Of a stretch of DNA of 64,000 nucleotides, positions 10,663 to 55,371 are shown piece by piece. The stretch lies in contig OZ024741.1 of NCBI GenBank assembly GCA_964016885.1, positions 79,298,001 to 79,362,000 on the forward strand. Reading direction: 5' to 3'. How positions within the stretch are numbered: the first letter of the stretch is position 1; each line of letters starts with the position of its first letter. The notes below the pieces were generated by a model. The model was not told the DNA's origin and did not search any database. It saw only the letters and a program-made list of their open reading frames with translations. The position numbers and the translations under genes were made by a program. The DNA comes from Eledone cirrhosa (lineage: Eukaryota).

Positions 10663-11574
10663 TCACTCTTCATCCTTAACCCATCTGAAGAAGGATATTT
10701 TTAAGCGATGTGTACAACTTATCGCTGTTTCAGCTCTGCTGTTGATGAGCTCGTGGGGTGCAGTTATGATGTGGTAGAGCTCCATGAGGCAAAGATCGCA
10801 TTTCCTCTTGAAGTTGTACGGTGCAGCCCTGCCGACAATCTTCCAGTGCGTGGAGAAGCTGATGTTTAAGTCCTTTAGTGGTGTGATGTAGTCCGCGAGC
10901 GAGGTGGAGTGCCTTAGTTTTCTATTTGTGAAAGAGTGAAGATGTGTTCGAAACCTAATTTTGAACGGGCCGGAGGTTACCCCTATATAATGTTTAACGC
11001 TATTGTGGCTAGTAATAGTGCATCTATATATAACCCTATCAGTCAAGCAGTATCCTCTAAGGGGGCAGCGTCCTCTGTCGCGGCAGTTGCAATTTCTGTC
11101 GCGGTTCCGTCTATTTCCCACGGTAAGGCTATCATTGTTGCTGCCTACGTTGTTACCTACGCTACCGCAGCTGTCGTTAGCACAATTACAACCCACAGCA
11201 CGCGGAGTGGTGCGATTGTTATTCCGCACGTCATGTTCTGCATGTTCCCCAGTCATTTCGCGGTTATTCTGGTTGCGTCTGCGGATGCCGTTGCCAACAC
11301 TATTGGATGCTGCCAGGGAGTTGTTAAGGCCGATATAGTTATTGTCAGGTGTAGGTGCGTCTGTGTCGAGGTGCTGTGTCTTGGTGATCTTACTGTGGTT
11401 CGTTGTTCCTATGATGTCTGCTAGGTTAGGAGTAGTAGAGAAGGATATTTTTATATTGTTCTTATTAAGAATTTTTCTATACCTATGGTTGGGCGCGAAG
11501 ATCTTCTCTAAGGCTTCGAAGAACATCCGGGGTATGTTGGAGGCCACACTCCGAGAGTAGGGGGAGGGGACCAT
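10663..11574 (-). pseudogene. PLE C-terminal region with GIY-YIG endonuclease
   Basis: HRYRKILNKNNIKISFSTTPN; CNCRDRGRCPLRGYCL; VIY...HYIG; RFRTHLHSF; CDLCLME; INSRAE. Confidence 0.85.
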
Positions 11575-12135
11575 AGGACGTTACGGTGGCGATTACGTGT
11601 CCTTGTACTTTTGCTACGGGTGGTTCCATCTAAGTGACCGCTCTTATATGTGTTAATGCGCAGTCGCCCGTTCGGTGCCCCTTTCACTTTATGCTCGGGT
11701 GCACTCTTTCTACCTCTTCCATGTTTATGTACACGAAGATGTTGGTTGGAAGGCGTTGGTAGTAGGCCGTCGCCTTTGTTGGTTTTGTAATAGGGGAATA
11801 GTTTGAGTAATCTACAGTGTTCACCGTCGCCGGGGACGTGATCTTTGGTGCGGTTATCTATTCTATTATATCCGAGTTCAACGAGGTCGCCGCGTGATCG
11901 GTTATAGGTATGGCTTACTATAACGTTAGTTTTATGAGGGGGTGGTTTCTAGAGCTAGCGTTAGGGATGTAGGAAAATCCTCGGTTAAAGCCGGCGCTTA
12001 TCAGGGCCCTATTGTAGTAATCTGCCGCTTGGTTGAAGATACTCTTTCCGGGCAATATAAGGAACACTTGTGATTATTTATGCCCTTGAGAATCCCAACT
12101 GGGCGAAACGTACGTAGGTGATATTTTAAATAAAC

Positions 12136-23739: not shown

Positions 23740-26700
23740 AGTACAGAACAATCAAAACTATGTTTAATACATTTTATTGCTGACAATCGTTTCTTCCAAA
23801 CAGCCGTTTGGATCATCGGAGCATTGGCAAAGCTTAAGCATATAATTAAATTCCTATTCTACAGAACAATCATAAGATATGTTGATATTATTGTTGCTAT
23901 CAATAGTGTCATATTCAAAGAGAGTGAAGATGTTGTGGTCAGTAGCAATGGGTATAATAAAGATTATAAAAGAATTATAAAAGTTACTCGCAAAGGAGGA
24001 CATTAGTGGTACATAGGCATATAGACAATAAGAACGCAGAGGTATTAAGTATAATCAGAATAATATAATATGGTAAAGAAAGCAAAGGTATTAAGCATAT
24101 ATAGCATAATATGGCAAAGATATCACAAAAATATAGGTGTAATAGGATATTAAGCAGTCAGGAATACATGGGTAGGATATAATGTGAAAATTGTGAAGCA
24201 ACTTGTGTTTCATTGATGCATGCGTTGAGAGTGGATCAGATAAATAATTAAGTGACAAGCTGTTGTGTAGTACAAAAAATGTTATATGGTATTAAGATAT
24301 GTATATGTAGCGAGATAATTATATTTAAAACAGTTTCTATGTGAGTTTATGGTGGATGTAATGGGATAAATGTTCTGGTAATGTTTAAATGTAAATGTGT
24401 TGTGAGTATTAATATTTCATTGGTTATATTTAAGAAATGAGTTTAAATAATATTTAAATAGATACAATTATGGATTGTATGTTGCCCTTATTATAATCCG
24501 ATTAAGGGTTAGAGTTGTTCTGGAGTGATCTCTTTTTAGTGAGATGTTAATTTTTCGAGTTGGTGTGGTTATGTCTAACGGTTTAAATTCAAGAAAGTGA
24601 TTGGAGATCTTCACTGAAGGGAGATAATAGGAAAGGGGAGGTAATTGAAGATTTATTTATGTATAACAGAAAAATATATAACCTGGTGTTAGTTGTTTAT
24701 ATATCCTATTAATTAAATTCTATGTATTAATATACATTATATTATATTATAAGTGAATCCTTATATAATGCTATTTATTTTTATATTTATTTTATATATA
24801 ATCTGTTTATTATATAATATTTAAAGGTCTCAATTGTCCACTACCTACCTATATATTAATTAAATGAATGAAATATTAGCAAGGAAGATATTATAGTTAT
24901 ATTAAGTGGTGGTAAATGTATGTTTATTCTCTATAGTTATTATTTAGTATAGGATCTGAGATAAATAGGAGATAAATGAAGGAATGAGCTGATACAAAAA
25001 TGTGATGTTGTGGGGGTATTTTATGTTGATAAAACCTAGAGGTAAAGTGTTAATGGTGGTGAGAAATCTAGATCTGACATTGTTATATATTAGCATCTAG
25101 GTTTAAAATTGTGGAAAGAGTGTCGGTGGTAGTGATTTTCTTTCGGATTTTCTATTTAAAAGGTTTAGTTTAGAATAGATTATAGTGCGAGTCTCTAAAA
25201 GACAGAAGTTACAAAATTTATTCGGTGGTTTATAAGAAGTGGCCCCAATCTATTACTTCCCATTGTAGTGTATGTGGTCTATTCCTAGTTTTCAAAGAGT
25301 GTATGTAGGTAGATAAAGAAGTGGAGTTAGCTAGATTATGATTTTTGAAAGTGTGAAGATGCGAGTTATATCTTGTCTTGAAGCAAATCGAGGTAGAACC
25401 AATATGTTTTCGAAGTGTTATTTATATTGACTGTACAGGAGTAAATGATGTCCTTGATTAAGCAGTTTTTTTTCCCAGGGGCAAGTTCTATTTGTTCTAC
25501 AATTACAGTTATTTTGGTTGTTTACTTGCTGGTTAATAGGGTGTGTAGGTGCATGGTTGTAAGGAAGAGTGTTATGATAATGATGATTATAATTCCTATT
25601 GCTATTAATTTCTTTAGTGCTATTACTATTATTATTATTGCTACTAGAATTCTCCGGTACGATGTTGTTATGTAAGTTCACCCCATGTTGCGATTTAATC
25701 ATTTGGAAATAATTATTAATCTTCCTTTTATTACTACTAGCTATATGGTTCGCAATGTTAGGTATGGTAGAGTAAGAGATTTTAATAGTATTTTTATTGA
25801 TAAGATTATGGTATCTATGGCCGATTGGGAATTTTTTGTCTAAAATTGAGAAGAAAGCCTTAGGCAAGTTGGTGGAAACGTTTAAATTGAAAGGGGGATT
25901 GAAAAATGTATTGGTTCTTCTTCTAATTTTGTGATTATTTTTTGTAATGTTAGTTGTAGTATTGTTTATATGTCTATTTTATTATTATTATCAGGATGTT
26001 TGTTTTGGTGCGAGTTAACTTTGTTATTACCCTTTATACTAGAGTTAGAGTGGTCAGTACTTTTATTACTTCTAATTTTATTCATGGCCATATTGTGTGA
26101 AATAATGTTACAACTAGATGATTTTTTAGGTAAAAATTTAATTTTATCTTTATGGCCTGAGCGAGCTAAAGCTTCATTATAGTATTGGGAATTTCCGTTA
26201 AATATGGTTTCATTATAAGATAGAGTGGTTATTCTATTAGATACTCCTTTAGTAATCGAGTTTAATATAGATTTAGGGTGGTTAGAGTTGGTATCAACAT
26301 AAAGTAGTTTTTCATTTGGTTTATGAAAGGGTGTATATATTTTAGAGTCCAGGCAAAGGGTAGCATCAAGGAAGTTAACGTTTTTAGTGTTTCTATCTAA
26401 GGTAATACTTAAGTTGAAGGACATTGGAAGGGCAAATTAGTCTTATTGTGGGGTTACTATTAAAGTCTTCCTTATGGTCTTTCAGAGGGAATCTAGGGGG
26501 GTTATGCGGTGTAAGGTTGTATAAGGTTGTTCTCTGAAGTCCTAATTTACATACTATACTATGGCCTTCAATATTTATATCGTCTAGGTTTCTAATAGTG
26601 GTTTTCTTATAGCTCTTATGCAGTTCTTTATATATAAATTTTCTGTAAGTTTCATAATCTAGGCTGTATATATTATTAGTTTTATCAGTTTTATAGAATT

Positions 26701-27198: not shown

Positions 27199-28616
27199 TT
27201 ATTTGCAGAATTATGTAACAGGATTACGTTGAACCCATACAGGGAATAGAAGATAGAATAAATAGAAGATAGAAAACAGAAAATAGTGGACCGATTCGAT
27301 TCGGAGACAGACAATTTGGTGTTATATCGATGACAGACTCTCCCCGAATGACACTTGATGCCGGCTCTGTGGGCTGGTACGCGTGGTGGCGGAGGTGGGG
27401 GTTGCCAAGTGGCGACAGGGATACATCCGTCCAGAAAATGCCCTTCATTAACTGCACCCAGAGTTTCTCTGTCGCAGAGATCAAAGGGTATTACTCTATT
27501 AGACGCCGGTCCGACAAGTCAGTCTACCGTGACAGTATTTAAAGAGGAACAGAGCTATGTAAAATTTTAAAATAGAAAAATAAATAATAAAAATAATATA
27601 AATAAATAGTGACAAGAAGAGAAGAATGGGGGTTTTAAATAGATATAAAATGATACAAAATATTATAAAGGTTGTAAGGCTGCAAAAATAAGGAGAATTA
27701 TAAGATTAAATAATTTTCAAAAACAATAAAGTTTACCAGAACTTACAAATATTATGTGCTAAATTTGTGTTAAATAAATTATAACCAAGGCAGTTGTTTT
27801 TTTAATTCTAATTGCCAGGATTCACGAAAGTACATTATTTGAAGAATATGGGGTTATTAAGCTATTTCATGCGTACATACGTGCTCTTGCATTGAGAGCT
27901 AAATTTTGTGTGGTTTATTTTCAACGGACCTAGTAGTCCAGCATACCATTGCGAAATCCATTGTAAATAGGTTATTACTGACCGGGTATATTCAAAAAGT
28001 GAAGAAAGGGGAAAATTGATTGATTAATTAATCAATTCCAAGCACTGTAGGTCCATAACCAAAGTTAGTCTGAACAGCGCGTTATTCAAAGGACCACATA
28101 TTGCCGGTCGATAGATTAACGCACCTCCCAAACGCTCACAATACCGACGAAAATGATATGATGATAAATACATAGGTAGCATATCTCACATATTCTTAGT
28201 TGCCTCCATGGCACTATAAATTATGAGAAAGAGGTTACATGTAGTCATACTTAGGTAGAAAATGTAAGTGTATAGTTGAAGTTAAAGTTAAATTAAGTTA
28301 AATTAAATTAAATCCACAGCAGAAAACTGCTGAATCGGGAAGAGAGCAGAAATACATTATTTATTTTTTATGTCCATACATGGAACAAAAGTGCAACCCA
28401 ATATATATATATGTATATATATATATATTAATAGTAATAATAATAAATGTGAAGACTAAAATCCAAAGAGCCCTCTTTGGATTTTAGATAGCCCTCTTTG
28501 GATTTTAGATAAGGATGAATATATATCAACTATATAAGAACCACAGAGAAAATATTTATTAAAATAATAGGGTGAAAGCAGCGATTCTTTGCTTAAACTT
28601 TAATCTATTATTTTAA

Positions 28617-29612
28617 TCCTGGCCTTTTAATTAAGAAAAGGCCTCGGGCGCACCCGATCGCTACAGATGTCTTGTAAGTAAGCGCCGAAACATCTGGATC
28701 ACGATTTTACAGCTGACGAAGGATTCTTTCTTCTTTTCTCATCTTGTTCCGTCCAAACCATCATCCTAAACCTTGTTTTTAGTAACCACACAACTCCTTT
28801 CGTTTCTTATCATTTTGTATTTAATGCTGTGACTCCCCTCTACCTGTTTTGTTCGATCTATGTTCCTACCACACTTTCGCATCGACTCTTCCTTTCTCTC
28901 TTCCCTTCTCCTCCCCCCTCTCGTTTTTTCTCTCTCTCTCACTCTCTCTATCCATCCGTTCGGCTTTGATTGTTGACATGTTTACACGTGTCGTAAAAAC
29001 TCCTCTGTTCGCAATCTTTTACGACACGTTTTACCACTGTCGTAAACCCCTTTTAGATTATCTCAGTTTCCCTTCTCCCTCTCACTTCCGGTTGCTCGTA
29101 TTCTCTCTCTCTCTCTCACTCTCTCTCTTCTACAAGAGAGTCAACACGCTAAATACCGTCTTCTGGTTAGCGCACCCTACCAGACTTATGTCTATCAGGT
29201 TTGCTATAACTTATTTATCCTATTTTTTCACGGTTACTCGCTTGTTTCTTTGTTCTGTATCTTCCCACGATGGGATGTGTTCACCTGTTTTTTTTTCTCC
29301 TTTTTTCCCATTTCTCTTTCTTCCTCTCCCCTCACCACCTTTTCCCCTTTGTTCTTCTTCCTCTTTTCCCTCTTTTTCCTTTCTTTTTCTCTCCTTTTTC
29401 GCTTCTTTTCCTCCTGGCCTTTTGATTAAGAAAAGGCCTCGGGCACACCCGATCGCTACAGTTGTCCTGTAAATAAGCGCCGAAACATTTGGATCGCGAT
29501 TTTACAGCTGACGAAGGATTCTTTGTTCTTTTCTCCTCTTGTTCCGTCCAAACCACCATCCTAAACCTTGTTTTTAGTAACCACACAGCTCCTTTCGTTT
29601 CTTATCATTTTA
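28617..29612 (+). mobile_element. ~1-kb non-coding element with ~200-bp direct terminal repeats, ending in (TA)n (retrozyme-like)
   Basis: 28617-28820 and 29412-29612 are direct repeats; pyrimidine-rich non-coding interior; repeats hold hairpins and hammerhead core modules. Confidence 0.75.
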
Positions 29613-29707
29613 TATATATATATATATATATATAGGTGTATGGTTGCAAGAAAAATTGTAACACTGAATCTTTGTTCCTTTATTCTTATAGTATATATAT
29701 ATATATA

Positions 29708-30205: not shown

Positions 30206-30799
30206 AAAATGGAACGGGAACAAAACAGAGAGGCACTACGAACAAAGGTTTATTAGTTTCACGCTCTTGAGAGTGGGGTGGTGTTGGTGGGGAGCGAAAA
30301 GTGTGTGGGAAGAGAGTTCCAAGGGTGTGTAGGGGGGTGGGGGAGACATTTAGAAAAAAGGGGTGAGAGGAAACGGTACAAATGAAAATAAATATAAAAA
30401 CATAATAAAAATAAAAATAAACATGAAGATAAACAAGTGCTGGAAGGGTGTGGGGCGTGTAGAGGTGGTGGCGGGTGGTGGCGGGTGGAGTGGGGAGAGG
30501 GGGGAGAGGGAGGCGGGGTGTCCGAGCGGGGAGGGCTGAAGGTGGTGTGTGTATGAAGGTGTACGTGTGTGTGTGTGTGTATGTGAAGGTGTACGTGTGT
30601 GTGTGTGTGTGTGTATGTGAATGTGAGAGTTGGGGGAAGAACGGGGTTCCATGTTCAGGAAAAGGTGTGTAGGGTGGGGTGTAGGTCGGTGTGTGTGTAC
30701 GTGTGTGGATGGGGAGGAGTCAGGGGGGTGGGGAGTGGGATAGATGATTCCGGAGGCTGAGTGTGTAAATATGTGGTGGTACGCACGTGTGTGTGGTGT

Positions 30800-30960
30800 T
30801 TATACGTATTGTGGCGTGTGGGAAAAAACATTTTTGTGAGTGTATGTCCGTGGGTAAGTTCCTAAAGTAGTTCCGTAGAGGGTGTGGTGGGCTGCCGGAT
30901 ATTTTCCTTGTGATGGAGTTGATTCGTGGGAGCGATGTCCAATGTGTGTAATCCGTGGTT
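30800..30960 (-). pseudogene. Possible non-LTR retrotransposon ORF2 C-terminus (L2/Rex1-like) inside a GT-rich block at 30200-31920
   Basis: A minus frame reads ITRKISGSPPHPLRNYFRNLPT...KCFFPHATIRIN, like the IxxDxSHPLxxLFxxLPS...SFxPxAIRxLN signature. Confidence 0.4.
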
Positions 30961-32658
30961 GGGTTGGTCGGAAGAGGGGAGATGTGGGGGGCTCGCGCAA
31001 CAGGAAGTGGTCAGAGGGTCAAGGCAGGAGGAGGGTTGTGTGTCTGTGTGTGCGGAGAGGTCGTCAGAAGGTCAAGGCATAGCAGCTGTAGGGGAGCATG
31101 GCAGTTGGAGAAAGTCGGTGTGTCAGTGTGTGCGGAGGTGCGGTGGACAGGGGAGAGGATGGGTAGGTGTGAAAGGTGGAGTGGGGAGGGGTTGTATTAG
31201 TAGAGGTGTTAGTGGGATGTGTGAGTGTGAAGGCGTGTGGGTGGAGCGGGGAGAGGGAGAAGGAGAGAAAGGTGTGGAGGCCGTGGAGGGAGTGGAGTGT
31301 ACTGGTGTGTGCGTGCGTGTTTGGATGAGTGTGTGTGTGTGGTGAAGGGGGTGTTAGTGGGTGTTAGTATACTGGTGGTGGGGAAAGGGTTGAATGCGGG
31401 TGTGTTAGTGGGGGTCAGTGGTGGTAGGGTGTGTAGAGTGGGTGATGTAAGTGGGTGTGGGTGGGTGTGTGTGTTCGTGTGCGTGGGTCGGGGTGGGGGG
31501 TGTTAGTGGTATTAGTTGTGGGGTGGTGGGAGTGGATGTATGGGTGAGGGTTAGTGGTGGTAGTAGGGTGTGTGGTTAGTGTGAGTGCGTGTATATATAT
31601 GTTGCGGTGGGTGTGTGCGTGATAGGCGGAGGGGGGGGGGGGGGGGGGTGTTAGTATTGTTAGTTGGGGAAGTGTGGTCGGGGGTAGGGTGGGGGTGTTA
31701 GTATTGTTAGTTGTGGGGTGGGCGGTGAAAAAGAGGAGTGTCTTAGTGGTGTTAGTGGGGGATATGTGTGTGTGTGTGGGGGGGGGGGGGGTCGAAGGCT
31801 AAAGGAATAGGGGTGGGGAGTTCAGGCCGGGGGGCGTGTGGGATGTAGGGTGAAGATGGTGCGTAGTTCGACCCTGTGGAGGGTGGCGGGTGTTCCGTGG
31901 CATTGGAGTAGGCCACAGACTATATATATATATATATATATATTATTGCTCATGTACATGTCATTTTACTTCTTTTTTTTAATGCGGTCTGTTAGTATTA
32001 AGAGATATTTTTCCAGAAGAGATTTTGATGATAAATCGATGAATAATATATATGATTATCATATTACTACAATTATTTTACCATTTATTTTGTATTAATT
32101 CTAAATTTATCCTTATTAATCAAAACAATTGTAGAAACATAAATGATTAAAATTGAATTATATATTTGGTTACTTCTCTTTAAACAATATTTTATGTTCT
32201 GTCATGCTGCTTATCGTCAATTGTTCGTATTTTATCCCATGGATAGTAACACTGGATTCATTTGACTTGCTTAATTGCTGATGATTATAACACATTGAGC
32301 GTCTTCTTATCATGATAAATATTACTTACTTTATTTCCCGGCATCGAAGACGCTACTTTTTTCCTAAAACAAGTCTCAAAAATCTACCATGCGTCCTGGA
32401 GGCCGAAGGTTGTTAAAATTAGGGTGCCTTCTCAAGGACGAAACGTCTTCGGCGCCGGGAAATAAGGTAAATGGACACCTCCATTTATAAAATGTCATGC
32501 AGTAATAATAAATACAAAGACCAAAATCCACTGAAGGCACGGTAAGACTTGACATACATATAGCATATATACACACGTAGAGCAAGTATCTTTTATTAAC
32601 ACAGATTAAAATTTTAAGCAAACAATTTTTGCTTTCATCTTAATGCGGGATCTTCTAT

Positions 32659-36965: not shown

Positions 36966-38395
36966 TCTCTTATCATACATACATAGATACGTGTAAATCC
37001 ATGCAATTATGGGTGGTTATGTACCTTGATGCCCTTAGTCAGTAACGCATGAATCAATGGAAGCTAAAAAATTAAAAGGTTAACAAATTTAAAAATAAAC
37101 AGGAAAGCGTATAATTAGGGGAAGGGGATATTAAAAAATGGTACGTCACATAGAACTATAGTGAGTTGCTATTTAGAATGTTTAATTAGATTTATAGTAC
37201 TTAAATGTTTTTGGTATACGGTGATTACAAGCTATAATCAGTTCCTGTCTTTTATTCAATAAATCATCCTTAGATTTAGTAATTTCCAAGATCTCCCCGG
37301 AACATAATCTGCATTCTCTCCTGTTCCCAAGATATGGAGCTCTTTGCAGAATGGTATTCCACGATAGCTTGAAATCTATTTTTTTCTTTTTATAGTTATT
37401 TACTGCTTTAGTTAAAGATGTGGTGTTAGCTAGTTTAGTATTGTAAAAGCTACTGGAGTATGCGTAATATCTTTTTTTAAATGTGTTCGATGTAGATCCT
37501 ATATATGATTTGTTGGAGTCAGTAGTAGACACAGTGCATTTATATATTACATTATTAATCAAACAGTTGCCATTTAAGGGGCAAACGCTTCTATTTCTGC
37601 AATTACAACCATACGTAAGATGGTTGTTGGGGGTACCTACATAATTCTCATTAATCCTTGAGCTATTCTTATTGTAATTAATGTTAGAGAGAGAATGAGT
37701 GCTGCTTTGTGGGTGATTTAGTGCTGGGGTTGTATTGTGATTTTGTGTTATGTTGTTTTGTGTTGGTGATTTGGGTGATTGTGTTTTCCAGGTTGAAGGA
37801 TTGTATTATTTGAACTTTTAAAAGGTGCTGTCTTATTTAAATTATGTTGTGGTGGTGTGGTCATATTATTTTTAAATTTATAAATGTTGTAGTTGCATAT
37901 TTTTTTGCTGGAGATTGTTTGAAGTAGAGTATGAGAATTTAACAGTATACCTGTTAAATATTTGGTGGTATCTGTGGTTTGATGGAAAATGTTTATGTAG
38001 AATTTCGAAGAATTTTGGGGGGATTTGTCCAATAGTTTGCAGGTTGAAGGGTGCGTTGTACCATGTTATGTTTCTTTTGCGGTTTTTAGTTAAGTTCTTA
38101 TTCACACTTATATTAATGTGCTGTGTTCTAGAAGAGTTCTTATGGTTAGTATTTGTATTTGTCGAATTTGGTAGATTGCATGGTTGTATTTGGTGTTATT
38201 ATTGGGTAGATTATGAGAGGGTGAATGTTTGGGAGTCATATGTGAGTTGTTAACATTGGTCATAAATCGTGTAGTAATAGTTGTTGTGGTTTTTCGGTTG
38301 TTTGGTGTGATAGGAATGACCCCATTAGGCATTTGTTTCGATGGTATTTTTTGGTATTTGTAGTTTTTGCTAGGTTTTGTAGTATGGTTCATAGT
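35832..38395 (-). mobile_element. 5'-truncated degenerate Penelope-like element (probably Hydra-type) between (TA)n tracts
   Basis: RKRNITWYNAPFN...HFPSNHRYHQIFNRYTVKFSYS (37878-38105); GCNCRNRSVCPLNGNCL then VIY...SYIG...CRLC...LLNKRQE (37182-37610); 3' boundary approximate. Confidence 0.8.
36457..36553 (-). mobile_element. tRNA-type SINE, 3' fragment
   Basis: Core and tail only. Confidence 0.75.
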
Positions 38396-44215: not shown

Positions 44216-44988
44216 CACATAAACACGAACTACTGACCAAATAATGGTTGGTACCAATGGGTTAAGATATCTGTCAAATCAATTAGATGACATCATGGAA
44301 ATCTGCCGAAAACTCAAACTAATAGAATACTTCTCTAATGACACCAACACTGAAGATGAATCAATAGTCAGAAACAAAATCGATTTCTGCCCACAGAAAG
44401 GGAGGAACACAGCACTGGACACCTACTGCGAACGCACCATCAACTTTCCCTATGAACAAATCACAAATAAACACACGAAATCGAACCTCTCCAAACACGA
44501 ATGGAAAGAATTATTCACACTGCGAAACAACACTGAAATAACCATCAAAGAAGCTGATAAAGGGAGCACTGTAGTCATTATGGACACTGACTACTATAGA
44601 GACCTGGCACTCAAAATCTTAGACGACAACAAATGCTACGAAAAAACAACAAACTACAAACAAACTAAAACTATGGGGAATTTCCTAGCATCACTGCAAA
44701 AATACCGCAGTAGCCTAACCACAAAAGGAATATGAATACATAAGTCATTTCAAATGTAAGACAAGTGCTTTCTACGGCTTACCGAAGATACATAAATATA
44801 AACTCGTAAACAATGCATGCGACACTTCAACTAACAAATACATACAATTAACACCACCAGAAGACTTAAAATTCAAACCAATTATAGCAGGCCCTGCATG
44901 TGAAACCCATAGACTTAGCAACTTCCTGGACATCCTACTAAAGCCCTTACTAAAACATATACAGAGCTACATACGGGATAACCTGGAT

Positions 44989-46409
44989 ATGCTGAACCAC
45001 CTACCCAAAACAGTAAGTGAAAACACTGTTCTAGTCTCCTTTGACGTAGTAAATCTCTACACTAACATACCCCATGGAATAACAGCAATCCAGTTTTGGC
45101 TAGACACTCACCAATCAGAAATACCAACACGCATCAACAAAATCTTCATTATTGATGGACTCCGATTTATCTTACAGAATAATTTCTTTACTTTTAATGA
45201 CTCAACATACCGACAAATCTCAAGAACTGCAATGGGCACAAAGGTAGCCCCCACATGCGCCAACTTAGTCATGGGATTCCACGAACAACAAATCCACAAC
45301 CAATCCTTTCTATTATTCGGAGAATCTTTCCTTACACATCTCAAAAACAACTGGAAGAGATACCTCGACGATTGCTTCATTCTATGGCAGGAAGACACAA
45401 ATACACTCACCCTTTTCAAAAATATGATTAACAACATTAACAATAATATACAATTCACAATGGAATCTAACTCCAAGGAATTAGCCTTCCTGGATATTCT
45501 CATTCTAAAAACAGATGGGAAAATAGAGACAGACATCTATTACAAACCCACGGACTCCAAACAGTACCTCCTATTCACATCAAATCACCCAAAACATACA
45601 AAACTTAACATCCCTTTCAATTTAGCCAAACCTATATGCACCATAGTATCAGCCTCAACTAAACGGGAACAAAGACTAAATGAACTCAAAAACACACTTA
45701 TCTTAAGAGCCTTCCTACTTAACATAATTAATAACGCTATAGATAAAGCAAAGCACACAAATGTTCATCAACCCAACAACCCAAAGTGCAGCACCACAAA
45801 CAATACCTTACCATATGTATCCATGTTTAACCCCAGAAACACCGCAATATTCGACCTCCTACACAAAAACTTCCCCATTCTATTTAAAGATGAAAAAATT
45901 AAAAAAATTCTAGAAACACACAAGATCATCAAAAGCAAAAGGCAACCCAAATCACTAAAACACATTCTCACTGGAACAAAGATACACAAACCTATCTCCA
46001 GCCTTACGGTAACAAAATGCGGAAGAACGAATTGTGGAACATGCTTATACTTAATTGAAGGACACAAATTTACGTTTAAAGATGGCCAAACTTTCACAGT
46101 GAAAAACATCTTCACTTGCAACTCGGAGAACCTGATCTATGTAATCACATGTGGTGGTTGTCAACATAACTATATAGGACAGACGGGGTGTCATTACGCA
46201 AAAGAATGACCATCTATCGCCAACAAATCCGTGACCTAAACACAAGGAAAATCCCCTTAAGCAGCCACATTGCAGATTGTGCAGGAATGACTCTCCCCAA
46301 CTTTAAAAGCTTCCCCTTTTACAAGTGCTCCGATTCTTTCACTCAACAACAAAGAATAAATAAAGAAAAACTATTTATTAATAAATTTAAACCAAAACTA
46401 AATATGTAA
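44989..46409 (+). pseudogene. PLE reverse transcriptase plus GIY-YIG endonuclease (frameshift near 46190)
   Basis: ORFs 44989-46209 and 46188-46409 join; upstream part in 44244-44735. Confidence 0.9.
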
Positions 46410-48186: not shown

Positions 48187-48841
48187 TTCGTTTCTGAATT
48201 TGTTTAGCAAGATTCTTTATCTGAAATCGTGTGTTGAAACCGATATTGTTATACTTTGGGAGGGTCATGTTGCCAATAAGAAACACACGCACCAGTTGCT
48301 TTCACTTCAATTTATTATATATTTATAAACTTACAAATTTATAAATTTATAAATTTCTGGTTGGTTGGTTGGTTCCACAACCAGATAGTTGTTTATATAT
48401 AGTCATAGTCCTTTCGTCACACACCCTGTGACCTCTTCAGTGACTGGGGATTCCTTTCTTTGTTTCTATGCCTTTCCTTTGTTCTGTCCTACGCCATTTT
48501 GTTTCTGTGTGCTGTGTGCTCAGTTTGCGCATGCGCCACATCCGGGTGTCTGTGTGTGTTTATGTTCATTTATCTATTTGTTTATTTATTTATTTATTTA
48601 CATGTTATTGGTTGGTTGTTTGTTCTATGTGTGTGTGTGTTTTCATTTTGTCCTTAATTGTAAGTTGTGATGTTGCTGTTCCACTCATATTTTTTATTTA
48701 ATTTTGGTTGTAATTCTTTTATGTTTATTGCCTCTGTAATTTGTCTAAACGTTGCATCTTTTCTGTGTGTAGATTCTATTTTTATTTCTATGTTCTCTAA
48801 TTTACCCTTGTGTTCTATCTTAGCATGTTGGTAGAGTACAG

Positions 48842-50671
48842 ATGATTCTTTATTATCTTGAAGGTCTCGCCAGTGTTCATTTATCCGTTCCCCTATACTA
48901 CGAGCTGAAATGTCCCCAAATGTCCCCAGATGTATGTGACAGCACGGAGGACCTCCTCAGCAGAATCGGCGTGAGTAACCGATCTGGGGACCTAACAAAC
49001 TGGATAATAGGCAGTATGGATGTTGTGTCCCTGTATCCATCTATTGACGTGGATTTTGCTGTGGAGAAATGCGTAGAAATGATCTGCGAGAGCAAGGTTG
49101 AGTTCCGTGGGATTGATACCAGTGAGCTGGGACTTCTACTTAAGCTTACCTATAGTAATAGTTACCTAGACACATATGACCTTAGCAACCTGTGCCCTAC
49201 AAGACCAGCAAGAGGCAGACCACCTACCATTACCTCAATGGCCAAGAAAACCCACACAGATAGATGGAACGGGTGGACCAGAGCCATATGGACACCCGAA
49301 AACCACGATGAACTGAAGAAAATGATTGCACATGCGGTAGGGGCCAGCATAAAACTAACCCTTAAGGAACATATGTTCAAATTTAATGGAAAAACATATG
49401 CCCAAGAGGAAGGAGCAGCCATTAGTGTTAGCATTGCAGGCGACATAGCTAACGTATTCATGGTATGGTGGGACAGTAGACTTAAACAAAAACTTAAAGA
49501 ACAATTAGAAGACAGCTTAACCCTGATAATGTACTCCCGCTACGTAGATGATATAAACATCGTAGTTAAGACACCCCCACTAGAGAACAGTCAGGAACTA
49601 GAGAAAAACACAATGGAAAGCATCCAGCAAATAGCAAACTCCATCCACCAGAGCATTAGAGTTACTATAGACTACCCAATTAGACACCCCAACCATCGAT
49701 TACCTGTACTAGACACAGAGCTCTGGTTAGATACCATTAACAACCAAAAACAAATCCTCCATTCCCATTATGCCAAACCCAAGACTTCCAAACATCTGAT
49801 CCACCGAAACTCGGCCATTTCGGACCATACCAAAATCAACATACTGATTGCGGATTTGGTACGGGTGATGAGAAATGTGTCCCGCATGTGCAACCCCGAA
49901 GAACTAGAGAGACACATACAACACTTCATCCACCGTATGCAGTTCTCTGGCTACAATCAGAGAGATAGAATCAGAGTGTATAGAGGAGCCAGAACCAAGT
50001 GGGAAAAAATGATAAATAATGACATAAATGGGACCTGCCCCTTGTATAGGAGCAAATTTTGGAATAGAATAGAAAGAACTAGGAACAAGGCTAATAGAAT
50101 AAACTCATGGTATGATAGCAATAAATACCAGAGTGTAATGTTCATCGATACAACCCCTAGAGGCGAACTAGCCTACAAATTTAGAAGGACCCTAAATAAA
50201 CATAAACTCAATATTAAGATAGTAGAAAGACCAGGTACCTCCGTAAAAACACTTATTAGCAAGACATACCCTTTTCAAAGACCCTCATGTATAGATAAGA
50301 AATGTATAACCTGTAAAATAAGCCCCCATATTAACTGTAAAACTAGAAATGTAGTGTATAGCATAAGATGTACTGAAGGACAATGTAGAAACAAAAATAT
50401 AGTGTACATAGGTGAGACAGCTCGTAGTATAGGGGAACGGATAAATGAACACTGGCGAGACCTTCAAGATAATAAAGAATCATCTGTACTCTACCAGCAT
50501 GCTAAGATAGAACACAAGGGTAAATTAGAGAACATAGAAATAAAAATAGAATCTACACACAGAAAAGATGCAATGTTTAGACAAATTACAGAGGCAATAA
50601 ACATAAAAGAATTACAACCAAAATTAAATAGAAAATATGAGTGGAACAGCAACATCACAACTTACAATTAA
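48842..50671 (+). CDS. PLE RT-GIY-YIG polyprotein, open frame but 5'-truncated (first ~22 codons come from the inverted arm)
   Basis: SMDVVSLYPSI, GAAISVSIAGDIANVFM, YSRYVDD, LPVLD, CIDKKCITC, NVVY...YIGETAR, RQITEA, LNRKYEW. Confidence 0.9.
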   Translation: MILYYLEGLASVHLSVPLYYELKCPQMSPDVCDSTEDLLSRIGVSNRSGDLTNWIIGSMDVVSLYPSIDVDFAVEKCVEMICESKVEFRGIDTSELGLLLKLTYSNSYLDTYDLSNLCPTRPARGRPPTITSMAKKTHTDRWNGWTRAIWTPENHDELKKMIAHAVGASIKLTLKEHMFKFNGKTYAQEEGAAISVSIAGDIANVFMVWWDSRLKQKLKEQLEDSLTLIMYSRYVDDINIVVKTPPLENSQELEKNTMESIQQIANSIHQSIRVTIDYPIRHPNHRLPVLDTELWLDTINNQKQILHSHYAKPKTSKHLIHRNSAISDHTKINILIADLVRVMRNVSRMCNPEELERHIQHFIHRMQFSGYNQRDRIRVYRGARTKWEKMINNDINGTCPLYRSKFWNRIERTRNKANRINSWYDSNKYQSVMFIDTTPRGELAYKFRRTLNKHKLNIKIVERPGTSVKTLISKTYPFQRPSCIDKKCITCKISPHINCKTRNVVYSIRCTEGQCRNKNIVYIGETARSIGERINEHWRDLQDNKESSVLYQHAKIEHKGKLENIEIKIESTHRKDAMFRQITEAINIKELQPKLNRKYEWNSNITTYN

Positions 50672-50880
50672 GGACAAAATGAAAACACACACACACATAG
50701 AACAAACAACCAACCAATAACATGTAAATAAATAAATAAATAAACAAATAGATAAATGAACATAAACACACACAGACACCCGGATGTGGCGCATGCGCAA
50801 ACTGAGCACACAACACACAGAAACAAAATGGCGTAGGACAGAACAAAGGAAAGGTACAGAAACAAAGAAAGGAATCCCCA

Positions 50881-50923
50881 GTCACTGAAGAAGTCACAGA
50901 GTGTGTGACGAAAGGACTATGAC
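50881..50923 (+). ncRNA. Type I hammerhead ribozyme (mirror at 48402-48444, minus)
   Basis: gtca CTGAAGA a gtcac-agagtgt-gtgac GAAAG GA CTA tgac. Confidence 0.85.
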
Positions 50924-51074
50924 TATATATAAACAACTATCTGGTTGTGGAACCAACCAACCAACCAGAAATTTATAAATTTATAAATTTGTAAATTTAT
51001 AAATATATAATAAATTGAAGTGAAAGCAACTGGTGCGTGTGTTTCTTATTGGCAACATGACCCTCCCAAAGTAT

Positions 51075-53433: not shown

Positions 53434-54855
53434 TTATTGTTCATTTAGCTTGGGTTTGAATTTATCAATAAAATTCTTTTCTTTGATTTTTCTCTTGATT
53501 TCACTTGGGCTGTGTAATTTGTAGAATGGGAATATTATAAATATTCCCTGACCACATGTTGCTAGATGGTTACTTAGGGGTATCTGACTGACATTTGGGT
53601 CTCTGATTTGTTGACGGTGTACCCGTGCACGTTCCGATAGTGCATTTCCAGTTTGACCGACATATAGTTCTTCACAATTCGGGCATTTAATGCAGTAAAT
53701 TAGATTTCTGCTTTTGCAGTTCATATTTGCATTTGGGAATATTTTTCCAGTTTTTGTTTTCATATATTGACCGGCGTGTATGGATTGACATGTGCCGCAT
53801 CGACTATCATTGCATTTAGATACAGTGAATGATTGGTCTTTGTTGTTAAGGTCAAACTTTGCTTTTGTTAGTAATTGCTTCAAATTTTTTGGCTGTCTTT
53901 TACTAAGAGTCAAAGATTGATATGTGATTAAGCCTTTTAATTCATTACTTTGAGCAATGATCGGTAGGTTTGCTTTGGCAGTGTTGAAGATATTCTGGTG
54001 ACATGGGTTGTGTGTCATTATAAATGGTATGACCAGTTCTTGGTTTCTTCTTCCTTGGGTTGTCCTAAGTTGTTGTATAGGTATTTTTATAGCCCGCTGT
54101 ATGCCATTTTCTATAAGTAGAGATGGGTATTTTTGTTTGAGCAAAAATTCTCTTAGTTCTGTTAGGCGTTTGTACCTGGTATTCGTATCTACTACAATGG
54201 TACAAATTCTTCTGGCTAGGCAGTATGGGATGCTGCGTTTTGTATGAGGTGAATGGCACGACTTAAAATTCAGATATTGATGGGTGTCTGTGTGTTTATA
54301 ATATATATCCGTGGTAATGGTGGAGTCGTTTTTGATTATCATTATATCTAGGAATGGTAATTTGGTCCTACTCATCTCTTTTGTGAATTGGAGAGATGGG
54401 TGTAGGTTATTCAGGAGGATATTGAACTCATCCAGAGTATCTAGAGATTCTGTCCAGATGATGAAACAGTCGTCAAGGTATCTCTTCCAAGATTTTTCAA
54501 TGTACTTTCTAAAGTCAGTACTATATTTTTCCTTTATTTCTTGGTAGAGTTGTTGTTCTAAGTATCCCATTACAGAGTTCGCGTAAACGGGAGCAAACTT
54601 CGTTCCCATCGCTGTGCCTCTAATTTGGATGTAATTCTTTCCATTGAAGAAGAAAGTGTTGTTTTCCAGAATAAGTTTAACTGCGTCTAATATAAATGGC
54701 GCTGTGAATCTGATGGGAATCACTTCTCTATGTTTTTCCACCCAGTATTTAACCGCCTTTATTCCTAAATCATGTGTAATGTTGGTGTAAAGGCTTACCA
54801 CATCAAACCTGAGTAGAAGTGAATTCGTTTCCGTGGTTTTGGGATCATTGCTCAA
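53434..54855 (-). CDS. PLE RT-GIY-YIG, open frame, 5'-truncated at the inversion junction
   Basis: FDVVSLYTNI, GTAMGTKFAPVYAN, WKRYLDDCF, LPFLD, CNDSRCGTC, LIY...LYVGQT. Confidence 0.92.
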   Translation of the reverse strand: MSNDPKTTETNSLLLRFDVVSLYTNITHDLGIKAVKYWVEKHREVIPIRFTAPFILDAVKLILENNTFFFNGKNYIQIRGTAMGTKFAPVYANSVMGYLEQQLYQEIKEKYSTDFRKYIEKSWKRYLDDCFIIWTESLDTLDEFNILLNNLHPSLQFTKEMSRTKLPFLDIMIIKNDSTITTDIYYKHTDTHQYLNFKSCHSPHTKRSIPYCLARRICTIVVDTNTRYKRLTELREFLLKQKYPSLLIENGIQRAIKIPIQQLRTTQGRRNQELVIPFIMTHNPCHQNIFNTAKANLPIIAQSNELKGLITYQSLTLSKRQPKNLKQLLTKAKFDLNNKDQSFTVSKCNDSRCGTCQSIHAGQYMKTKTGKIFPNANMNCKSRNLIYCIKCPNCEELYVGQTGNALSERARVHRQQIRDPNVSQIPLSNHLATCGQGIFIIFPFYKLHSPSEIKRKIKEKNFIDKFKPKLNEQ

Positions 54856-54891
54856 AGTAATGAATTAAAAGGCTTAATCACAGATCAATCT

Positions 54892-55371
54892 TTGACTCTT
54901 AGTAAAAGACAGCCAAAAAATTTGAAGCAATTACTAACAAAAGCAAAGTTTGACCTTAACGACAAAGACCAATCATTCACTGTATCTAAATGCAATGATA
55001 GTCGATGCGGCACATGTCAATCCATACACGCCGGTCAATATATGAAAACAAAAACTGGAAAAATATTCCCAAATGCAAATATGAACTGCAAAAGCAGAAA
55101 TCTAATTTACTGCATTAAATTCCCGAATTGTGAAGAACTATATGTCGGTCAAACTGGAAATGCACTATCGGAACGTGCACGGGTACACCGTCAACAAATC
55201 AGAGACTCAAATGTCCGTCAGATACCCCTAAGTAACCATCTAGCAACATGTGGTCAGGGAATATTTATAATATTCCCATTCTACAAATTACACAGCCCAA
55301 GTGAAATCAAGAGTAAAATCAAAGAAAAGAATTTTATTGATAAATTCAAACACAAGCTAAATGAACAATAA
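54892..55371 (+). pseudogene. Inverted duplicate of the GIY-YIG domain (second partial copy at 55772-55999)
   Basis: Near-identical to the C-terminus of 53434-54855. Confidence 0.9.

Follow-up and report, generated by a model that had tools for sequence, protein, structure and literature searches.

A hammerhead core in S-G-C order in both terminal repeats of an abundant non-coding retroelement of Eledone cirrhosa

The stretch of Eledone cirrhosa DNA analyzed here (the window, 64,000 nucleotides of contig OZ024741.1) contains a protein-less retroelement with a hammerhead core in both of its direct repeats, as a preliminary description of the sequence had observed. The hammerhead has been split into blocks S, G, and C by Eckert et al., who named the S-G-C order type SGC (PMC10085705). 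Both repeats hold all of the hammerhead core positions, ordered as the cleavage site (S), block G, and block C. Taken together, comparison of copies and the predicted fold make it probable that this is a slightly decayed insertion of an abundant non-coding retroelement, the terminal repeats of which would each encode an S-G-C hammerhead core that likely cuts.

The whole insertion (28617..29611, + strand) consists of one 795-nt unit and a 200-nt terminal redundancy, is pyrimidine-rich, and features no credible ORF, which also holds for the 795-nt unit examined on its own for coding capacity. Repeat comparison identifies direct repeat 1 (28617..28816, +) as the 5'-truncated start of the element, and comparison of both the repeats and the copies identifies direct repeat 2 (29412..29611, +) as the 3' end that is common to the family. 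Repeat 2 is offset from repeat 1 by 795 nt and 11 of the 200 positions differ. The sequence at the 3' end adjoins a (TA)n run (29611..29634), the target microsatellite, and loose read ends in contigs from a sequencing run lie near the 5' boundary of the element at 28606/28617. Comparison with other copies and with the contigs of one sequencing run revealed that T28672, G28678, A28701, A29445, T29462, and T29489 are private changes, so both copies of the motif in the window are slightly decayed. The second copy of the motif (29409..29520, +; predicted cut after C29466) differs from most copies at A29445, T29462, and T29489. The predicted cut-to-cut RNA monomer (28672..29466, +) is 795 nt long and, when folded computationally as a circle, has an energy of -107.6 kcal/mol versus -91.7 ± 5.4 kcal/mol for 20 shuffles with 39% of its bases paired; the computed circle is modestly structured and is not rod-like. 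Upstream of the element there is a 21-nt tandem in two perfect copies (28469-28510), and just 3' of the element lies a low-complexity region (30250-31800) with a strong G/T skew and a GC skew of 0.67.

The core positions that characterize a hammerhead ribozyme, 3-9, 12-15, and 16.1-17, are all present. In repeat 1, block S (28664..28678, +) comprises the 5' strand of stem III, the predicted cut after C28671, and the 3' strand of stem I. Block G (28682..28696, +) comprises the 3' strand of the stem II equivalent, core positions 12-15 (28687-28690), and the 3' strand of stem III, and block C (28706..28725, +) comprises the 5' strand of stem I, core positions 3-9 (28713-28719), and the 3' strand of a closing helix, P0. 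Stem III of repeat 1 is formed by 28664-28670 with 28690-28696 in 7 perfect pairs, and stem I by 28672-28678 with 28706-28712 in 5 Watson-Crick pairs and 2 G-U pairs. In repeat 2 stem I is perfect (29467-29473 with 29501-29507), and stem III contains a U.U mismatch (29462/29488) and one G-U pair. The preliminary description had given coordinates for the motif in both repeats and had read it as a hammerhead core in reversed block order that pairs in stems I and III; each coordinate agrees with the sequence, the core is complete in both repeats, and both stems are borne out by the alignment described below. Rfam searches with gathering scores over the 64-kb window and with E values up to 10 over 28500-29700 returned no ribozyme family. 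The circular order C-G-S of type I, II, and III hammerheads was rejected, as the order in the window is S-G-C and there is no Rfam match; pistol, hairpin, and HDV-like ribozymes and the minus strand gave a poorer fit by eye.

The motif is abundant in this 3.0-Gb genome. The repeat family of the window has at least 1273-1556 first-look candidates (40 scored each). Its copies have a 3' end that is fixed at (TA)n, are truncated to varying extents on the 5' side, form partial tandems, and often lie next to an inverted piece. As judged from copy anatomy, the same marks have been described for Naiads and other Penelope-like elements (PLEs). A pattern with the permuted order matched the genome 986 times, compared to 74 matches for the reversed control, and brought out subfamilies of the window's family as well as a family H. 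Another pattern, from which the first stem I pair of the window was excluded, matched 257 times compared to 125 times in controls, an excess of which much is due to an unrelated SINE-like family, and also brought out families C, D, and G with 1607, 67, and 398 candidates, respectively. The majority lines of families C, D, and G keep the core and have stems I and III that are different yet fully paired; families C, D, G, and H all keep the core with differing stem I sequences. A descriptor that demands at least 5 pairs in stem I and at least 4 pairs in stem III found 58 distinct matches with 16 stem I sequence types in 796 kb of loci, a count that is not a genome-wide rate given that the loci were chosen for carrying the motif, and found 0 matches in the reversed sequence and 0 in five shuffles of the same loci. 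Within the window this stem-checking descriptor passes repeat 1 only, and repeat 2 fails on stem III.

Additional families came out of these searches. The largest family among the first pattern matches (L034, L035, L044-L047, L049, and others) shows no stem I complementarity by eye and was rejected as a chance match. It is an abundant SINE-like family that resembles a SINE domain and in which look-alikes of block G and block C surround a small hairpin. A further family carrying the motif (L190) is present as three copies ~32 kb apart (G000:C1:149872401, 149904461, and 149936023). In family D (L094, L097, and L099) the motif is located ~200-250 nt 3' of a decayed LINE ORF on the same strand, and this ORF has restriction-like endonuclease motifs by eye; we presume that it belongs to the HERO/NeSL clade. 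Since family D follows a LINE ORF, the motif is not exclusive to Naiads, and its position suggests that a second retroelement class may carry the permuted motif. An open 972-aa LINE-type reverse transcriptase frame at L031:15-2930 is unrelated to the hammerhead element.

In the proposed fold, blocks S and G would form a hairpin made of stem III and a bulged extension, and block C would pair into the loop of this S-G hairpin as stem I, generating a pseudoknot. Stem II would be split, with a splint pairing before block G, the strand after block C closing P0, and a hairpin in between. The 5' strand of P0 (28615..28620, +) pairs with 28720-28725 according to the minimum free energy (MFE) fold and the alignment (76% paired, double changes in 4 of 6 pairs), in a register that is uncertain by 3 nt; the truncation of repeat 1 removed part of the family's P0 strand. 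The hairpin between P0 and the splint strand (28621..28643, +) has 8 pairs and a 7-nt loop and is likewise found in the MFE fold and the alignment (86% paired, double changes in 7 of 11 pairs). The splint strand (28647..28651, +) pairs with 28682-28686 in what is likely the stem II equivalent, a helix that is 79% paired in the alignment and has 5 pairs in repeat 1, one of which is broken by A29445 in repeat 2; its double changes are few (2 of 6 pairs, 5 cells in 34 copies). The stem III extension (28655..28663, +) includes a 5' strand (28655-28659) that pairs with 28697-28701 and a 4-nt bulge (28660-28663), both supported by the MFE fold and the alignment; the extension helix is 67% paired with double changes in 7 of 9 pairs, in an alignment that offsets the window's subfamily by one column at this helix.

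The covariation alignment covers 34 of 37 copies of related subfamilies, leaving out two copies with deletions and one copy of family H. The six-helix model (P0, hairpin, splint, extension, stem III, and stem I) is paired in 81% of 1310 cells across the 34 copies, compared to 39-47% in slid registers. Double changes occur in 23 of 40 pairs versus 18.1 in shuffled alignments and in 115 cells versus 47.5 ± 5.5, where the shuffle controls ignore relatedness and the double changes stem from a handful of subfamilies. Stem I and the four extra helices covary across these 34 related copies. Stem I is 92% paired with double changes in 3 of 5 pairs, and stem III is 97% paired and invariant, with paired sequences that differ across families. 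Of the two stems for which the preliminary description had proposed a covariation test, stem I covaries in this alignment. Core columns are invariant or nearly so in the 34-copy alignment, in part fixed by the search pattern, and the core is independently present in copy sets picked by similarity. The splint helix, P0, and the extension are also readable in the majority lines of families C, D, G, and H (by eye, uncounted). Nested MFE folds lock the splint in a small hairpin, and the MFE fold of repeat 2 differs.

In the main rival reading the same core is completed between two repeats, such that the S-G hairpin of one repeat receives block C of the other and only tandems cut. In every family read, 0-2 unpaired bases separate the 3' strand of the extension from stem I, and with such a short linker closure within a single molecule is hard unless the hinge bends sharply. 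Which strand bears the bulge, 5' or 3', varies between families, and the units occur in partial tandems, features that also suit an exchange between repeats. In our model, the bulge in stem III would turn the extension back towards the end of stem I and thereby allow a single repeat to fold alone, and the bulge or a kink-turn-like hinge is in the same place in every family read, which fits a strut within one molecule. A kink-turn-like hinge is readable by eye in family C; the window's subfamily lacks it and has the 4-nt bulge. Type I hammerheads of PLEs are thought to cleave as dimers (PMC6765202), a precedent for the exchange, and those dimer-forming hammerheads have a minimal palindrome as stem III, whereas stem III has 5-8 pairs here. 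Some published SGC ribozymes also join two helix ends without a linker (PMC10085705). On this balance, completion between two repeats appears unlikely, and folding of one repeat is preferred.

There is also some discrepancy regarding stem II. The preliminary description proposed a stem II of 2 bp that follows block C after an extra purine. When this stem is lengthened to six pairs, it is 47.5% paired overall in the 34 copies: 33 of 34 rows allow the first pair, 27 of 33 the second, 0 of 33 the third, and 3 of 34 the fourth. The 2-bp stem II is thus likely wrong, since pairs 3 and 4 fail to form and an upstream helix of 5-6 pairs is 79% paired, with the exception that its first pair could still form; the base concerned was in part set by the search pattern. 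Nor is the extra purine a general feature, as families C, D, and G have G right after core position 9. The alignment and the model make it likely that stem II is split, with the upstream splint pairing before block G and the segment that follows block C pairing further upstream. Two bases may partner position 11.1: in the window's subfamily (26 of 34 rows) the splint places a G opposite it, and in most of the other rows the G directly after position 9 can serve. A reading of the motif as plain type SGC with the extra purine and a stem II of one or two pairs, in which the upstream helices belong to an alternative fold that may be inhibitory, draws on the first two pairs and on families C and G and subfamily A6, where, by eye, the G after position 9 could form the 10.1-11.1 pair. 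This reading is improbable, given that pairs 3 and 4 are absent in nearly all rows, that 29-32 of 34 rows have the two G bases of this short stem paired in P0, a helix with double changes, and that the invariant G is partly fixed by the search pattern. An extra helix between the strand before stem I and the strand after stem II is possible in a 4-pair version in some copies by eye; both of its strands also pair with upstream partners that covary.

The RNA of the element would likely self-cleave after C28671 and C29466. If the RNA is cut at the site, full-length copies should begin there, and the 5' ends of copies were compared with this expectation. In family A, 5 of 27 copies have 5' ends at -2..+13 of the site (observed +3 to +9), compared to 2 in the 100 nt upstream (p 8e-4), with a query that starts 13 nt after the site. 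A further inverted arm in family A begins at +2, and in L244 and L266 an arm runs from near the site through the whole unit. In family G, 5 of 23 copies have 5' ends in the -2..+13 interval, compared to 5 in the 100 nt upstream (p 7e-3), with a query that is itself truncated at +1; for both families the interval was picked after the data had been seen. In family C, for which the prediction was set beforehand, 3-4 of 28-29 ends are near the site and 13 are upstream, which is not significant (p 0.2-0.4). The 5'-end footprint of cutting is suggestive and mixed across families, and an AT-rich loop could instead attract inversions or microhomology near the site. Most copies span the predicted site. 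The window copy begins 55 nt before the first site and so would have come from uncut or circular RNA.

These results bear on a reading in which the structure is derived from a hammerhead, does not cut, and serves the retroelement enzyme as a signal for binding or template switching. An active Anolis PLE did not require hammerhead cleavage for insertion in vitro and no RNA ends were found at the site (PMC11167929), 8 of 9 Xenopus retrozyme dimers failed to cleave (preprint 10.64898/2026.07.22.740005), and the majority of copies in this genome span the site, all of which would agree with a loss of cutting. Against this, families whose stems are unrelated retain all core positions and an allowed cleavage triplet, and 5' ends cluster after the site in two families. 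A non-cutting structure is considered improbable. A chance arrangement of short motifs in a repeat, for which it could be said that copies within one family are neutral and their conservation says little, is effectively refuted by the 986 versus 74 pattern matches, the several families with different paired stems, and the covariation.

In the proposed mechanism, cutting after C28671 and C29466 would release the 795-nt monomer as a linear RNA or a ligated circle. The insertion marks suggest that a Penelope-type reverse transcriptase and endonuclease would then act in trans and copy the monomer into (TA)n sites. The mobilizing enzyme would most likely be that of a Naiad, and the motif likely derives from, or shares ancestry with, a ribozyme in the Naiad 3' UTR.

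Naiads were described by Craig et al. as being without canonical hammerheads, yet 10 'core' and 8 'half core' cases were flagged in that work (PMC8557442). Reading of the last 600 nt by eye in its supplement revealed a reverse-order hammerhead in 7 of 11 Naiad record ends, 5 SGC and 2 CSG, and no readable motif in the displayed 600 nt of the other 4. The SGC ends are those preceding Naiad_Ovul, Naiad_Omin, Naiad_Smim, Naiad_Sdum, and Naiad_EuTe, and the CSG ends are those preceding Naiad_Hpol and Naiad_Lpol; two further CSG motifs are visible by eye in other passages of the supplement, and the CSG cases have a normal 5-pair stem II by eye (PMC8557442). The records preceding Naiad_Ovul and Naiad_Omin feature P0, the hairpin, the splint, and the kinked extension as in the window (by eye); file order in the supplement makes it likely that these two octopus-adjacent records are Naiad_Obim and Naiad_Ovul. 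In the same supplement, the record preceding Naiad_Smim combines the S-G-C order with changes at both core position 3 and core position 8, and the record preceding Naiad_EuTe has an S-G-C motif with ~250 nt inserted between blocks S and G (PMC8557442).

In the E. cirrhosa genome no Naiad ORF linked to the motif families was found, and a pattern built for the Naiad-type motif of octopus had 0 matches. As for the record preceding Naiad_Smim, the changes at positions 3 and 8 would keep the tertiary pair between these positions. PLE ORF matches beside copies of the motif were rejected as nested neighbors that are not linked to it. A protein-motif pattern diagnostic of Naiads identified 7 places, one of which is a decayed Naiad-like remnant 53 kb beyond the window (L202 and L208; G000:C2 near 79415487); its family has at least 106 candidates, and no block C was readable in 11 aligned 3' regions. 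The window also contains a Penelope-type ORF (48824-50671, +) that is followed by a minimal type I hammerhead (~50880-50925) with an extra purine before stem II, where other copies (L012 and L205) carry G for A, a motif that is missed by Rfam. Further Penelope-like ORF remnants are located at 10663-11580, 25418-26436, 37182-37805, 44223-46209, and 53434-55371. Pfam searches on four Penelope-like remnants found RVT_1 in 2 of the 4 and GIY-YIG in one.

The topology itself is already known. The preliminary description knew of no natural hammerhead with this arrangement, a view that is incorrect, as the same order was published as type SGC by Eckert et al. in 2023 (PMC10085705). No description of SGC or CSG hammerheads in retrotransposons or animal genomes, or of a split stem II, came up in a literature search with little coverage of subscription papers. 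Also not encountered in print were the occurrence of the SGC order in an abundant family of animal retroelements with insertion marks of the Penelope type, the sharing of this order by unrelated repeat families, and the reverse order in 7 of 11 Naiad 3' ends (by eye). The broadest proposal drawn from the sequences, which we consider evenly balanced between true and false, is that a large class of animal retroelements has as its working ribozyme a hammerhead of four strands, non-circularly permuted, in which stem II is split and the strut is bent. This hammerhead would be the ribozyme thought to be missing from Naiads, with SGC in octopus and arthropod elements and CSG in others, as well as the source of many retrozyme families; it would have been picked up by an unrelated LINE, and in vivo its cut would fix the 5' end of the RNA template. 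Presence at high copy number in animal retroelements places the non-circular permutation in a biological setting and provides a deep set of natural variants. Such a finding would revise the views that hammerheads are absent from Naiads and dispensable for PLEs, and standard descriptors and Rfam miss the whole class. If the split stem II is true, the core tolerates a break next to position 9, extending the three-block model.

Among known systems, the element resembles a type-SGC hammerhead retrozyme, although it lacks one feature that defines type SGC and another that defines non-LTR retrozymes. The first reports of non-circularly permuted natural RNAs date from 2023 and concern environmental sequence with unknown hosts almost exclusively, and five type SGC examples cleaved in vitro at 0.007-0.19 per min (PMC10085705). 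In comparison with type SGC (HRIMA-1, SGC variant; PMC10085705), the window motif has the same S-G-C block order with all core positions, the stem I pseudoknot, and a short linker between stem I and the side of stem II. The published SGC ribozymes have an exclusively metatranscriptomic origin, a true stem II built from the strand that follows block C (5 pairs in the SGC-1 oligos), and an extra helix that joins stems I and II (PMC10085705), whereas the window motif is from an animal retroelement, its stem II is likely split by the splint, and a bulged stem III extension leads into stem I. The feature of type SGC that is missing is a stem II right after an uninterrupted block C; at most two such pairs are possible and the strand pairs in P0. 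The published SGC descriptors use one fixed core spelling and at least 2 further stem II pairs and, by eye, would miss the window copies (PMC10085705).

Naiads share the (TA)n targets, 5' truncation, partial tandems, and inverted neighbors, and they encode an endonuclease and a reverse transcriptase, whereas the window element encodes nothing (PMC8557442). The metazoan non-LTR retrozymes of Li et al. (2026) are also non-coding tandem units with one hammerhead per unit; the units are reported as 51-972 nt and as derived from PLE termini. In that preprint, retrozymes are defined by type I hammerheads and type I models alone were searched, in contrast to the S-G-C motif of the window (10.64898/2026.07.22.740005). 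The window element is thus a non-coding tandem unit with a hammerhead in each repeat, and the type I hammerhead is the retrozyme feature that it lacks. Metazoan non-LTR retrozymes are reportedly also the subject of a 2020 study by Cervera and de la Pena. The minimal type I hammerheads of canonical PLEs have the same core in the same place near the PLE-type 3' end; they feature the circular C-G-S order, a tiny palindromic stem III, and cleavage as dimers, whereas the window motif features the reversed order and a long stem III (PMC6765202).
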